In this document: piece by piece, positions 6,277-15,088 of the stretch
Layout of the letters: every line of letters begins with the position of its first letter
Position numbering within the stretch: the stretch's first letter is position 1
Assembly: GCA_964583985.1 (NCBI GenBank)
Contig: CAZOYD010000052.1
Coordinates: 1-24,287, forward strand
Reading direction: 5' to 3'
From: an uncultured archaeon
GTDB lineage: Archaea > Asgardarchaeota > Lokiarchaeia > Sigyniarchaeales > SOKP01
Length of the DNA stretch: 24,287 nucleotides
Program-made: the position numbers and the translations under genes
Notes under the pieces: model-generated
The model's input: only the letters and a program-made list of their open reading frames with translations
What the model was told of the DNA's origin: nothing
Database searches by the model: none

Positions 6277-7905
6277 ATGAAGGAGCTATTTTTAGGGTTA
6301 GATTGTTCCACGCAAGGACTAACTGCTATAATAATTGATTTTAACTCTTTTCGAATTCTTTATAAGTATGAGATCAATTATGATCGAGATTTAGCGCATT
6401 ATAAGACTCATAATGGAGTCTATATCCATGATGATGGAATTACAGTTCATTCAAACCCCTTGATGTGGGCAGAAGCTTTAGACCTAATATTTTTTAACAT
6501 GGTGAAGGATGATGTGCCTTTACAGTCTGTTTTAGCTATTTCGGGATCGGCTCAACAACATGGTACCGTTTATCTCAACACTAAGTTCGAAAAAAATCTT
6601 AAAAATGTGAGTCCTGATTCTAATTTGGCCCATTTTTTACTCAACTCATTTTCACGAAAAACAAGCCCAGTTTGGATGGATTCAAGCACGTCAAAACAAT
6701 GTCAAGAAATTAGAGAAAAATTGGGAGGCATGAAAAAAGCCATTAAGCTCACCGGCTCAAACATAACTGAGCGATTTTCAGGACCTCAAATTAGAAAATT
6801 CTACCAACAACAATCCGAGAAATATGAAAAAACACACATAATTCATTTGATCAGTTCATATATGGCTTCTTTATTATTAGGAAAGAATGCTCCTATCGAT
6901 CATGCCGATGGAACAGGAATGAATTTAATGAATATTGCTCGAAATCAATGGGATCGAGAGGCTGTGGAAATAACAGCACCAAATTTGATGATAAAACTTC
7001 CTCCTCTTATCAAATCTTATGAGATTATTGGAAATATTGCCCCATATTTTACAGAAAAATATGGTTTTTCTCCAGAAACCTTACTTATTGCTTGGTCAGG
7101 AGATAATCCAAATAGCCTTGTAGGAGTGGGATTGATCTCTAAAGGGAAAGCAGCAATAAGTTTAGGTACTAGTGATACATTTTTTGGATACATGGAAAAC
7201 TTACACTTTGATTTTACAGGAGAAGGACACGTGTTTGGTACCCCTACAGGTTATTATATGAGCTTGATATGTTTTAAGAATGGTTCCTTAGCAAGAGAAC
7301 GAATTAAAAATCAATTTAAATTGACCTGGAGTGAATTTTCAGAGTTATTACTTCATACTCCACCAGGTAATGACGGAAATATAATGTTACCCTATTTTTT
7401 TCCAGAAATTGTTCCACTAGTATTAAACTCAAAACCCTATAGATTTGGATTCAGTGAAAATGATCCAAAAGCTAACGTGAGAGCCGTTATAGAAGCACAA
7501 TTCTTATCGATGAAATTGCATTCATCATGGATTAAAGAAAAAGCCACTGAAATCCATGCTACTGGAGGAGCATCAATAAATACAGAGATAATGCAGGTTG
7601 CTGCTGATGTTTTTAATATACCTGTACGCATTTTTGAACAGGCAAACTCAGCAGCTATAGGTGCTGCTATAAGAAGTGCAAAATCATTTTATGACTCGAT
7701 AGGGCAATATACCTCCTGGATTGAAATTAACGAAAAATTATCGCAGTTACTCATTAAAGAGATTCTATACCCAAATGAAAATGTTACGAAATTATATGAA
7801 GAAATGCTTTTTTTGTATGAAAAATATGAGGATTATGTGCTCAGAGGGAGTGAAAATCCCGAATATTTTAGACAGAGATTTAAAGATAAATACGGAAAGA
7901 AATAA
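6277..7905 (+). CDS. xylB: xylulokinase, FGGY carbohydrate kinase family (eukaryotic XYLB/XKS1-like subtype)
   Basis: LGLDCSTQ, SGSAQQHG, SPVWMDSST, ERFSGPQIRK, IDHADGTGMNL, SGDNPNSL, ISLGTSDT, CFKNGSLARE, TGGAS. Confidence 0.88.
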   Translation: MKELFLGLDCSTQGLTAIIIDFNSFRILYKYEINYDRDLAHYKTHNGVYIHDDGITVHSNPLMWAEALDLIFFNMVKDDVPLQSVLAISGSAQQHGTVYLNTKFEKNLKNVSPDSNLAHFLLNSFSRKTSPVWMDSSTSKQCQEIREKLGGMKKAIKLTGSNITERFSGPQIRKFYQQQSEKYEKTHIIHLISSYMASLLLGKNAPIDHADGTGMNLMNIARNQWDREAVEITAPNLMIKLPPLIKSYEIIGNIAPYFTEKYGFSPETLLIAWSGDNPNSLVGVGLISKGKAAISLGTSDTFFGYMENLHFDFTGEGHVFGTPTGYYMSLICFKNGSLARERIKNQFKLTWSEFSELLLHTPPGNDGNIMLPYFFPEIVPLVLNSKPYRFGFSENDPKANVRAVIEAQFLSMKLHSSWIKEKATEIHATGGASINTEIMQVAADVFNIPVRIFEQANSAAIGAAIRSAKSFYDSIGQYTSWIEINEKLSQLLIKEILYPNENVTKLYEEMLFLYEKYEDYVLRGSENPEYFRQRFKDKYGKK

Positions 7906-7961: not shown

Positions 7962-8162
7962 ATGACATCTGAACTAATAGACCTTTCTCGCAAGAAAAAG
8001 AAGATATACCTTCTACTTGCCATAATTCTCATAACGGCAATCTCAATCACCTTAATTTCTTTAGGAATCGCAAATTCAAATCCAATAGATGAAGGAGGTG
8101 GATGAGGATGTTTAATTATCCCACACATTGCCAATTTCTTAGAATTAATCCTTTATTTTTGA
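7962..8162 (+). CDS. putative small membrane selenoprotein (66 aa, Sec48 encoded by UGA 8103-8105, UxC motif)
   Basis: Manual translation: MTSELIDLSRKKKKIYLLLAIILITAISITLISLGIANSNPIDEGGG-U-GCLIIPHIANFLELILYF*. Basic N-region plus hydrophobic TM helix; in-frame TGA in GGG*GC; SECIS-like hairpin immediately downstream. Confidence 0.7.
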
Positions 8163-8198
8163 ATGATTCTCGTGAAAAAATGATGGTCACGAGAGGAC
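8163..8198 (+). promoter_or_regulatory. eukaryote/Lokiarchaeota-type SECIS element
   Basis: ATGA(8163-66)-T-TCTCGTGA(8168-75)-loop AAAAATGATGG-TCACGAGA(8187-94)-G-GA(8196-97)-C. This gives an AUGA/GA core, a perfect 8-bp helix II and an A-rich apical loop. Confidence 0.75.
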
Positions 8199-8360
8199 TG
8201 CCCTGCACGGGTAAATTAAGGAGAAAAATTAATTTGAGTGTTTCACAAAATTTTTAATATGATTACTAGTATAATAAGTATTATTTGTCTGTAAATTAAA
8301 AATTCTTATAAATTTTCAAATCCTCATAAATTGAATTAATAGAGATTTAGGTGAAAAAGC

Positions 8361-9158
8361 ATCTCGAAAGAAATTCCCGAAAAAGTAAAAGAAGCGCTTC
8401 GATCTATTGGACTCACGGACTATGAAATTGCCATATATCTCACATTAATTAGCAAAGGACCAATGGACGCGAGAGAATTATCTGATGCTTCAGGAGTTCC
8501 ATACTCGCGAATATATAACATTTTAACTCAACTCGAAAAAGATAAAATGTGGATTTTAAAAGAAGAATCATCACGCCCTTCCAAATATTTTTCAAAAAGT
8601 CCAGATGAAGCATTAGTAATCGCAAAAAAACAATATAATGAAAGTTTTGATGAACATTCAAACAATATAATCCATGAACTCACTCCAATATACGAATCAC
8701 ACGATACTCCCATTAAAGTTGCGCTATATATCCATCGCGGTCGAAATGCATGCATTAGTCGTGGACTCTCGCTTATTAACATAGCAAAAACCGCCATTTA
8801 TTTAGTCTGTCCCGAATATGAGTTCTTAGACATATTCTATGAGGATGCTAAAAAAGCCAGAGCTCGAGGTGTAATTGACATTAAGATTTTAATTGAGGAA
8901 AAATCGCTTGAGGACAAGAAATTCCTCGCAATACTCAAAAAGTATTCTGAAATAGCAATAATTCGATCCAGAGATCAAGTATTTGGAACATGCATAGTTA
9001 TGGATGAAGGAGAAGATGCATTTATTATTTTAACTCAAAAATTTTTCAAGGGGTTAAGTTATTTCGGCGCATTAACAGATCACGTAGCTTTTGGCCCCGC
9101 TGCTAATTATTACTTTGATTATTTGTACAGATCCGCAAAAGAAGTTGAATTAAAATAA
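8361..9158 (+). CDS. TrmB family transcriptional regulator (probable non-AUG start, ATC 8361)
   Basis: ALRSIGLTDYEIAIYLTLISKGPMDARELSDASGVPYSRIYNILTQLEK is the TrmB wHTH; its first half lies upstream of ATG 8463. AGGTGA RBS at 8349-8354. Confidence 0.85.
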   Translation: MSKEIPEKVKEALRSIGLTDYEIAIYLTLISKGPMDARELSDASGVPYSRIYNILTQLEKDKMWILKEESSRPSKYFSKSPDEALVIAKKQYNESFDEHSNNIIHELTPIYESHDTPIKVALYIHRGRNACISRGLSLINIAKTAIYLVCPEYEFLDIFYEDAKKARARGVIDIKILIEEKSLEDKKFLAILKKYSEIAIIRSRDQVFGTCIVMDEGEDAFIILTQKFFKGLSYFGALTDHVAFGPAANYYFDYLYRSAKEVELK

Positions 9159-13003: not shown

Positions 13004-13921
13004 CTAAATTTTTATCGTTCTTAAATGTTCCATCATTCCCGTTCCAATTTCTCCCGTTTTCAAATCCTCCATGATTACCATTTGTTCAAATAATTCGGTG
13101 AAACCCCCTGGGAAATCACGAACAAATCGAATATAGGAGGTTTTAAACATTCTGCTTGATTTGATCTTGTATGAATGCCCCTTATTATCCTCAAACTCAT
13201 AAGTGGCTGATATCGGGCTTTTAAATTGATCCCTATCGTTTAGAGTTTCGATTTCTAAGGAGGATAATAAGGTATTACCCTTTTCCCTTGCAATATGTCC
13301 CGATAAATCGATATTCTCCTTGGAATAATCTTTCCTAAATGCGCACGACCAATCTTTAAACTGAAAATGACCTGCATACCACTTATCAAACTCATGCCAA
13401 TCCCGAAACCCCCAACTTTTATCACGTTGCCCGTACCCGCTTACTTGGATGATCTCTCCATCACTATTAGCTAACTTCCCCGTGATAATGCCTGAGGATT
13501 CAAAATGCTGGTGCCAAGATTTAGAAGAGTTCAACCCAAAATTATGAGTTGGAAATCTCGTTTCAAATGCTAGTTCAAGTTGCATTTTCCGCGACTGGTA
13601 GGATATACTCCATTTTTTAAATGGCTTGATGAGATGGTACGAGAGTCTTTTATCCTGCAACATGATATTTATATCTTGATTGTATTCTCTCAAAGGGGGT
13701 TCTTTGTAATAAATCTCATTTCGATCTTTTAAGAAAAGTAAAAATACGAATTCTCTTCTCTTTTCATTTGGAAGAATCCCAATCGTAGAAAACCCCGAAA
13801 TTTTATTATCTAAGTCGCTCCAATTAAAATAATATGATTCTCGCCATTTTATTTGATTGGTGGGCTGATGTAATAATTCATCTTTCTCATTTAATCCAGA
13901 GGGTAAGTAATTATTGTTCAT
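13004..13921 (-). CDS. hypothetical beta-rich protein (CrtC/tocopherol-cyclase/lipocalin-like double barrel)
   Basis: WRESYYFNW, HFESSG..TG, G.GQRDKSWG.RDW and terminal GTGMMEH motifs are typical of this superfamily. Confidence 0.5.
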   Translation of the reverse strand: MNNNYLPSGLNEKDELLHQPTNQIKWRESYYFNWSDLDNKISGFSTIGILPNEKRREFVFLLFLKDRNEIYYKEPPLREYNQDINIMLQDKRLSYHLIKPFKKWSISYQSRKMQLELAFETRFPTHNFGLNSSKSWHQHFESSGIITGKLANSDGEIIQVSGYGQRDKSWGFRDWHEFDKWYAGHFQFKDWSCAFRKDYSKENIDLSGHIAREKGNTLLSSLEIETLNDRDQFKSPISATYEFEDNKGHSYKIKSSRMFKTSYIRFVRDFPGGFTELFEQMVIMEDLKTGEIGTGMMEHLRTIKI

Positions 13922-13924
13922 GCA

Positions 13925-15088
13925 TCATTCCTCTGGAAACAAATATAAGGATGGACCTTCTCTCTTCTTTTTCCCTTTACTTCTCATTAAACGAGGAATA
14001 CCGGGGTCAAAATCGGATTCCATGAATTCTGGAATATAGGTATTCATTGTTTTTTCAGTCAGATCCCAATTGAAATTGTGTGTAATGCCAACTTGATTAG
14101 TATAACGTGAATAGCCATAGCAGTATGCGTAAGCTCCAGCAATAAGTCGTTGCTTGCGGTCCCATTTTGAAAATTTTAAAAAGAGCTCCTTGTTTGCTTT
14201 TGTGGCGTAATCATTAAAACCTTCTAATACTTCAAAATCTAATGGTTTCACATTGTTGTTATCACGGGTGAAGATTGCAGCTCCAGTAATATGATCTGTA
14301 AAATCTTCGGGAACCGTTTCCATTGTAGCGAAATCATCGAATTCGACATTAATATCTTTTAAACGATATGCAAATGCAATATTATTGAAAGGAGCAGTCG
14401 CTTTAGTTTCAGACCATGGAAAATGGGGTTCTTTTCCATCGAATAGATGAGATATTTCACGAAATATTAAAATTTCATTATCATTAATGGGATATGGGCC
14501 GTGATCGCATAACTTTGCTCGCGCTTCACACTCATCAAGGAAAGAAACAATTTCAAGATTTGCCATGGTTCGTTTCATGAATCCAGCACTTTCCTTATTT
14601 ATGTCCACTAAATGATCAATAGTCCAATCAACATCTTTTTGATTAATCGCAATATTTTTCTTATCTGAATCAAAAACCGATAAATTGCCTTGAAAATAAG
14701 ATTCTGCCAATCTTTTCCAAAAATCTAAGACAAATAATGTCTCTTCACGTTTTTTTAAAGACTCACTTCCAGGATCTCCCTTATTTCTGTGAATTTCTCC
14801 CATTCTTCCTACCATGTAATATAATGGAATGTAAAAGATACTTAAAGCTTGAATTTCAGACAAAATTTTTCTGCTTTCAAAGCCTAATTGTTCAGGAGTC
14901 ATCTTTTCTGATACTTTTTTCAAGATATCATACAAAATATCATACGCATTATAGAAAGAAACGCATATGTAAGCAGTCACTGGAAATAACTGGGTTTCTA
15001 ACAGACCTCTCTTCGACACTTGATAATCTACTAATTCTGATGCATGAGCTATCAGTTTATTTGCTTCTTGCACGTTCATTTTAATCAA
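13925..15088 (-). CDS. conserved hypothetical protein, candidate substrate-binding partner of the split dikinase
   Basis: 387-aa ORF, 3 bp from the next gene; enzyme-like conserved-looking segment FLDECEARAKLCDHGPY. Confidence 0.7.
   Translation of the reverse strand: MIKMNVQEANKLIAHASELVDYQVSKRGLLETQLFPVTAYICVSFYNAYDILYDILKKVSEKMTPEQLGFESRKILSEIQALSIFYIPLYYMVGRMGEIHRNKGDPGSESLKKREETLFVLDFWKRLAESYFQGNLSVFDSDKKNIAINQKDVDWTIDHLVDINKESAGFMKRTMANLEIVSFLDECEARAKLCDHGPYPINDNEILIFREISHLFDGKEPHFPWSETKATAPFNNIAFAYRLKDINVEFDDFATMETVPEDFTDHITGAAIFTRDNNNVKPLDFEVLEGFNDYATKANKELFLKFSKWDRKQRLIAGAYAYCYGYSRYTNQVGITHNFNWDLTEKTMNTYIPEFMESDFDPGIPRLMRSKGKKKREGPSLYLFPEE

Follow-up and report, generated by a model that had tools for sequence, protein, structure and literature searches.

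We identified a small gene, at positions 7962 to 8162 (+), that, from its sequence and that of its relatives, almost certainly is a real coding gene in which the UGA at 8103 is decoded as selenocysteine (Sec). The gene lies in a 24,287-nt contig (the window), which comes from an uncultured archaeon of the Lokiarchaeia. The account that best explains the observations as a whole, and that we consider very probable, is of a gene in which UGA 8103 specifies Sec and is decoded by means of a lokiSECIS, with a bitopic membrane product that has a Sec/Cys function. The gene and its relatives appear to constitute an eighth Asgard selenoprotein family, Lokiarchaeia-wide and absent from published lists (PMC11227280, PMC13188914). 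Decoding via lokiSECIS elements is already known; the protein is new.

A short open reading frame can be extended past an in-frame UGA

In the open reading frame (ORF) listing, which uses genetic code table 11, the frame that begins at ATG 7962 has 47 codons (7962-8105). When TGA 8103 is read as Sec, the ORF is extended by Gly, Cys, and 16 more residues, up to the TGA at 8160. A first-pass annotation of this DNA had proposed this same gene (ATG 7962, TGA 8103, GGA-TGT, 16 codons, TGA 8160), with a basic RKKKK stretch, a hydrophobic helix of ~21 residues, and a hairpin that starts 60 nt past the first UGA and abuts the second. All of these coordinates were confirmed; RKKKK corresponds to residues 10 to 14 and the hydrophobic run to residues 15 to 37 (23 residues), and the AUGA of the hairpin starts at 8163, exactly 60 nt past the first UGA. 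A polar, acidic linker, NSNPIDEGGG, precedes Sec, and the G-G-G-U-G-C motif spans residues 45 to 50. The features of the locus are as follows.

6277-7905 (+): FGGY-family (xylulokinase-like) kinase gene, flanking the selenoprotein gene
7962-8162 (+): predicted selenoprotein coding sequence, from ATG to the second UGA with the stop included; 66 residues; has homologs with one TGA
8004-8072 (+): single transmembrane (TM) helix, residues 15-37, seen in the sequence and predicted as a helix by AlphaFold2; RKKKK precedes it
8094-8111 (+): G-G-G-U-G-C motif, with predicted Sec codon TGA 8103-8105 and Cys codon TGT 8109-8111
8112-8159 (+): hydrophobic C-terminal tail, 16 residues past U-G-C, with a substitution pattern like that of the part before the UGA
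8150-8221 (+): possible outer helix around the SECIS, tentative; 8150-8158 with 8213-8221, 8 of 9 pairs, from the MFE fold; the 5′ strand consists of the final coding codons
8160-8162 (+): terminating UGA, abutting the SECIS core directly (0-nt gap to AUGA)
8163-8197 (+): lokiSECIS core: AUGA, 9-bp stem, 11-nt A-rich loop ending in G, then GA (putative kink-turn)
8200-8212 (+): mini-hairpin GCCC-UGCAC-GGGU, 4 bp, just 3′ of the SECIS core; paired in relatives
8463-9158 (+): TrmB-type regulator gene, flanking the selenoprotein gene

The order kinase, selenoprotein gene, TrmB holds throughout the organism's own genus. Another genus has the gene in two contexts, one with an alpha/beta hydrolase and an ARMT1-like protein and one with a 340-amino-acid (aa) membrane protein and an MFS transporter. 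Comparison of the neighborhoods in these genera revealed no gene partner conserved across them, and the neighborhood therefore leaves the function unconstrained. The sequence upstream of the ATG is AT-rich, and we found no conserved promoter or ribosome-binding-site motif in it. Neither the protein nor its 29 dissected relatives (described below) had a Pfam match beyond TM-composition noise, and a PDB profile search returned designed coiled coils and generic TM helices and nothing else.

We also considered 13004-15088 (−) in the window as a second selenoprotein gene, which would encode 694 aa if its TGA specified Sec. This candidate was rejected. The region consists of two adjacent genes, the first ending at the TGA and the second, which carries DUF7065, beginning with an ATG two codons later; no SECIS was found downstream.

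The hairpin at the end of the gene conforms to the lokiSECIS definition

According to Mariotti 2016, a lokiSECIS comprises AUGA, a 9-bp stem, an 11-nt apical loop, and GA and is located near the end of the coding sequence; the first five bases of the loop are mostly A, and the last is an ultraconserved G (PMC4989117). The element at 8163-8197 agrees with this definition on every point. Its stem pairs 8167-8175 with 8187-8195 through eight Watson-Crick pairs and one U-G pair, the 11-nt apical loop is AAAAAUGAUGG, and the GA is at 8196-8197.

We scanned the whole 3.8-Mb genome (31.7% GC) and five shuffles of it with a strict lokiSECIS pattern. The genome contains nine pattern sites, versus 0, 1, 0, 3, and 0 in the shuffles (mean, 0.8). 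Six of the nine are just downstream of known selenoprotein genes: four are 4 to 13 nt past HdrA-VhuD pairs, one is past VhuU, and one is past a Prx-like gene (PrxL). The other three sites are behind a 148-aa ORF with two TGAs, behind an unconserved small ORF, and at 8163-8197.

The two ORFs associated with pattern sites elsewhere in the genome differ in their conservation. The 148-aa ORF (C126:649-1092, +) has two adjacent in-frame TGAs (..HAD-U-U-ADN..) and a lokiSECIS 28 nt past its stop. It has no Pfam family; of 39 genomes of the genus, 33 contain homologs with two TGAs, and some genomes have two copies. Its sequence suggests a further selenoprotein family, marked by a U-U dyad, that the published Asgard lists do not include. 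The small ORF (C9:23300-23470, +) encodes 56 aa with two helices, ends ..EKE-U-NF, and has a lokiSECIS 23 nt downstream. It has only one weak relative among the 39 genus genomes and is either lineage specific or a chance pairing with a SECIS.

We trained a covariance model on just the six SECIS elements behind HdrA-VhuD, VhuU, and PrxL and scanned the window with it, filters off. The sole strong match in the window was at 8157-8201 (+), with 41.4 bits (E = 1.5e-7, a rough E-value); the next-best match scored 15.7 bits. What had been called a SECIS-like hairpin in the first-pass annotation thus has the full lokiSECIS definition and a high score with a model of known elements. A search with all 4227 Rfam families at E <= 10 gave no SECIS match in the window. 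Because the SECIS models of Rfam do not cover the Loki form, this silence is not evidence against the element.

The in-frame UGA and the sequence past it are conserved across Lokiarchaeia

We searched the six-frame translations of 134 genomes from the same taxonomic family for the protein. Almost all of the matches have exactly one in-frame TGA. Twenty-nine matches were dissected, and every one of them has a basic N terminus, one helix, a G-rich run, U, a nearby Cys, and a lokiSECIS. In all 29, the frame stays open beyond the UGA for a further 7 to 33 codons. The Cys is at +2 from U in 28 of the 29 aligned homologs and at −2 in the other (G048); the +2 Cys codon is TGT in 20 and TGC in 8. The ratio of synonymous to nonsynonymous changes is 58:199 (0.29) after the UGA and 191:610 (0.31) before it, and the codon-position counts after the UGA match those of the part before it.

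The first-pass annotation had proposed that relatives be examined for a conserved in-frame TGA, for conservation past it, and for Cys-containing homologs (GGGCGC). The TGA is present in the relatives, where the first stop is always TGA and never TAA or TAG, and the codons past it evolve like coding sequence. The predicted Cys form did not materialize: there was none among 17 database matches or in the genome searches; only 8000 word-sharing candidates were scored. Cys-containing homologs are the usual corroboration of new selenoproteins; the reading of these genes as a selenoprotein family is not refuted by this result.

When 160 genomes of the class were searched with a profile built from the 29 members, at least 70 matches reached E <= 2e-6, and each has an in-frame TGA; given a short protein of low complexity, the E-values of distant members lean on the TM segment. 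Matches at E <= 0.01 were found in 37 of 40 genomes of the organism's own genus and in 45 of 54 genomes of a second genus. Three genomes of another family in the class have GGGG-U-G/V-C genes with a SECIS. We also assembled a synteny-anchored set that was not selected on the feature itself, consisting of 59 loci found via the neighboring TrmB gene in metagenome-assembled genomes mostly labeled Promethearchaeota. The gene is present at the same spot, upstream of the TrmB ortholog, in 35 of these 59 loci. Counted by genome, at least 70 Promethearchaeota (Lokiarchaeia) contain a homolog with a single in-frame TGA.

The relatives vary around the Sec codon. A nearby Cys is not universal; it is at +1, +4, or +8 in some relatives, and one has none nearby. 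In one subclade (L100, L104, L113, and others), which includes TrmB-anchored loci, the motif is U-P-S-T-C or U-P-N-I-C, with Cys at +4. The length of the tail ranges from 0 to about 33 residues, and that of the product from 57 to 90 residues. Among tail-less relatives, the frame closes with ..G-U-G-stop in G085 and with ..GGGG-U-C-stop in G003 and G005; judging from these sequences, some lineages can do without the hydrophobic tail. Two relatives have another codon at the Sec position, CGA (Arg) in L090 and TGG (Trp) in P0010, each one base from TGA. These are probably decayed copies or sequencing errors.

The SECIS stem and a small 3′ hairpin are maintained by compensatory changes

In all 29 dissected relatives, the offset of the AUGA from the second stop is −1 to +23 nt, and the distance from the Sec codon to the SECIS is 47 to 118 nt. 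The second stop is TAA in 16 relatives, TGA in 12, and TAG in 1. In four homologs, L027, L029, L034, and L045 (G119, G123, G095, and G114, respectively), the offset is −1 and the stop UGA is the UGA of AUGA, a single triplet being both stop codon and part of the kink-turn.

In the alignment of relatives, the SECIS stem is 90% paired, with changes on both sides (compensatory changes) in seven of the nine pairs. None of 500 shuffles reached the observed covariation score, and pairing fell to 38 to 48% when the partners were slid by 1 to 3 columns. The mini-hairpin just downstream is paired in 90% of cells across the relatives, with a compensatory change in three of its four pairs. It is also found with the VhuU, PrxL, and HdrA-VhuD SECIS elements of this genome (C11, C23, C43, C60, and C77). 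This gene and the known selenoprotein genes thereby share a small hairpin of ~4 bp, with a ..GCAA.. loop, 3′ of the SECIS GA. The outer helix is tentative, because pairing of its equivalent in another genus, CCGA/UCGG, reaches only 61% across the full alignment. The outer CCGA/UCGG helix often encloses the mini-hairpin, which suggests a three-way junction and not a simple stem-loop.

The genome encodes Sec machinery

The first-pass annotation had pointed to the Sec machinery (tRNA-Sec, SelD, PSTK, SepSecS, and EFSec) as something that the genome should contain, and this machinery was found, in part as candidates. A tRNA-Sec gene is at C27:19492-19584, adjoined on the same contig by SepSecS (467 bits), and SelD carries an in-frame TGA. 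An EFSec candidate lies ~4 kb from the tRNA-Sec gene, with a score of 232.6 bits that is just under the curated cut-off and a match to positions 1-293 of 581. A PSTK candidate matches its model over the full length, with 158 bits, which is under the curated cut-off. The organism clearly uses Sec. ARAGORN found only 10 tRNA genes in this 3.8-Mb genome, which is rated 100% complete; most tRNA genes presumably carry introns or unusual structures that escape the default search.

Charge distribution predicts an outward-facing Sec

Across the family, K and R make up 128 of 458 residues of the N-terminal flank versus 3 of 360 residues of the linker, and D and E account for 35 of the 360 linker residues. 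The linker consists of 8 to 14 acidic or neutral residues (about 10 in this protein). Given a basic N-terminal flank and an acidic linker, the positive-inside rule predicts that the N terminus is inside and Sec on the outer face, and we infer from the sequences an N-in/C-out topology. AlphaFold2, run with the 29-row alignment, predicted a helix at residues 3 to 38 (core pLDDT, 78 to 84), a loop at the motif, and a low-confidence helix at residues 52 to 65; with a mean pLDDT of 65, the model is weak.

These observations suggest how the gene may be expressed and what its product may do. By analogy with the other Loki selenoprotein genes, the lokiSECIS at 8163-8197, with the mini-hairpin at 8200-8212, would recruit the Sec-specific elongation factor together with Sec-tRNA(Sec), and UGA 8103, 60 nt upstream of the SECIS, would be decoded as Sec. 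UGA 8160 would terminate translation because it abuts the SECIS, which would be unfolded or occluded when the ribosome reaches that codon. The product would be a 66-residue bitopic membrane protein with a short basic cytoplasmic N terminus and one helix that spans the membrane. The acidic, Gly-rich linker would present G-G-G-U-G-C at the outer face, and the short hydrophobic tail would be embedded in the membrane or rest on it. With a single residue between them on a flexible Gly linker, Sec and Cys may cycle between the selenol/thiol and selenylsulfide forms, which would make the motif a putative membrane-surface redox site, comparable to the GCUG of thioredoxin reductase, or else a site that binds soft metals or chalcogens. 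The simplest suggestion from such a Sec/Cys arrangement is a reversible selenylsulfide, acting as a redox centre, or else a site for soft metals on the surface of the membrane.

Mammalian thioredoxin reductase has a C-terminal GCUG redox centre that forms a reversible selenylsulfide. There, too, Sec and Cys are at most one residue apart, flanked by Gly, in a flexible segment. In thioredoxin reductase, a large flavoenzyme carries the motif as its mobile tail and reduces it, whereas no reductase domain or conserved partner gene is evident here. The FeoB-associated Cys-rich membrane protein (PF12669) is likewise very small, with one TM helix followed by a Gly/Cys-rich motif, but its charge polarity differs and it is without Sec. 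Membership of PF12669 is not supported; only 2 of the 29 members match, insignificantly, with a best E-value of 0.18.

Alternative explanations

Could the locus be explained without Sec? The spacer between the xylulokinase and TrmB genes is AT-rich, and the ORF is short and without a Pfam match, so that the ORF and its TGA might have arisen there by chance. The ORF, the TGA, and the SECIS are kept across genera, however, in three different genomic contexts and with constraint at the protein level; the conservation data refute an absence of any gene, and this explanation retains virtually no probability. Alternatively, translation might stop at UGA 8103 to give a 47-residue membrane peptide, which is exactly what gene callers output, and the hairpin might be an unrelated terminator or regulatory structure, as hairpins behind short genes are common. 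We find this highly improbable. No sequence-specific feature of a lokiSECIS is missing from the hairpin, which a model of genuine elements scores at 41 bits; the Cys two codons past the supposed stop is kept with synonymous TGT/TGC variation, the frame is open up to the SECIS in 29 of 29 relatives, and the first stop is TGA throughout, never TAA or TAG. A further proposal accepts Sec but takes the N-terminal segment for a cleavable or anchoring export signal, the product being a short, exported, and possibly modified selenopeptide. A basic n-region followed by a hydrophobic h-region does resemble a signal sequence, the linker has small and polar residues, and the part past the helix is very short and variable (10 to 50 residues). 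Yet, for a signal peptide, the hydrophobic run of ~23 residues would be long, and no other part of the protein is as well conserved or as well predicted; we recognized no lipobox or cleavage motif, and no modifying or export genes lie nearby. An exported selenopeptide is accordingly unlikely, and we favor the membrane-anchored selenoprotein.

The resemblance of this membrane selenoprotein to SelK (PF10961) and SelS/VIMP (PF06936) raises the question of whether the family is an archaeal homolog or ancestor of these eukaryotic endoplasmic reticulum membrane proteins. They are likewise small and single pass, with a single N-terminal TM helix (seen here in the sequence and in the AlphaFold2 model), a Gly-rich linker, and Sec in a probably flexible G-G-U-G context. 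A few relatives (G085, and G003 and G005) end at the motif, with Sec penultimate or antepenultimate, as SelK and SelS do, and no archaeal lineage is closer to eukaryotes than that of the host, whose SECIS type is already shared with them. Against this, the Pfam models of SelK and SelS gave no match to any of the 29 members, even at a cut-off of E <= 10, and the PDB profile search returned only generic TM helices. Most members carry a tail beyond Sec, with 18 residues following it in this protein, whereas the Sec of SelK and SelS is 2 to 3 residues from the C terminus. The linker of 8 to 14 acidic or neutral residues differs from the ~50-residue basic Pro/Gly-rich cytosolic domain of SelK and SelS, and the charge distribution predicts the reverse topology, with the Sec-bearing segment outside here by the positive-inside rule and cytosolic there. 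What is common to the motifs amounts to 3 to 4 Gly around U, which could easily be convergent. We consider descent from a common ancestor with SelK/SelS very unlikely and, from the sequences, the resemblance probably convergent, with only a small residual chance of homology; the caution of the first-pass annotation, that homology to SelK/SelS was not established, was well placed, there being no profile match among 29 members and an opposite predicted topology. There is similarly little chance that the Asgard family is an evolutionary precursor of SelK/SelS that kept the GGUG-type tail while its topology and cytosolic domain were remodeled. If that were true, at least one “eukaryote-specific” selenoprotein family, beyond the SECIS type, would have been inherited from the archaeal host.

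Relation to known Asgard selenoproteins

The HdrA-VhuD, VhuU, and PrxL genes of Lokiarchaeia have the same type I lokiSECIS, the same placement of it only a few nt from the stop, and the same mini-hairpin (PMC4989117, PMC11227280), and they are found in the same organisms with the same Sec machinery. The present gene differs from these in its very short UGA-SECIS distance (47 to 118 nt in the family). Huang 2024 used homology to known selenoprotein families to survey more than 400 Asgard genomes and listed seven Asgard families: SelD, FrhA/VhuU, HdrA, FrhD/VhuD, Prx-like, AhpF-N-like, and DsbA-like (PMC11227280). A 2026 review repeats this seven-family list (PMC13188914), and the SECIS-first search of Mariotti 2016 reported only HdrA, VhuD, VhuU, and PrxL (PMC4989117). 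Compared with the seven listed families, the protein described here is unrelated, is predicted to be membrane anchored, and is without a soluble catalytic domain. Full-text literature searches gave no description of this membrane selenoprotein family, and its absence from the lists of Huang 2024 and the 2026 review bears out the suggestion of the first-pass annotation that it is an unannotated family outside the HdrA/VhuD/VhuU/SelD/Prx set. A collection of 5.8 billion proteins contains members only as “hypothetical proteins” of 44 to 49 residues whose last codon directly precedes the TGA; one further entry, of 73 residues, has Trp in place of Sec.

The family escaped surveys based on homology because it has no known Cys homologs and no known domain. 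As a putative selenoprotein family, it would be the first of the listed Asgard families to be a membrane-anchored microprotein without a known Cys form, and it marks a blind spot: searches based on homology and on Cys homologs miss such genes, and SECIS-first scans of Asgard genomes can still find selenoproteins, such as the candidate with the U-U dyad in this genome. In annotation, the family is systematically misrepresented as truncations of 44 to 49 aa. With its UGA-SECIS gap of only 47 to 60 nt and a stop that can overlap the SECIS core, it may offer a compact system for studying the eukaryote-like SECIS of archaea.
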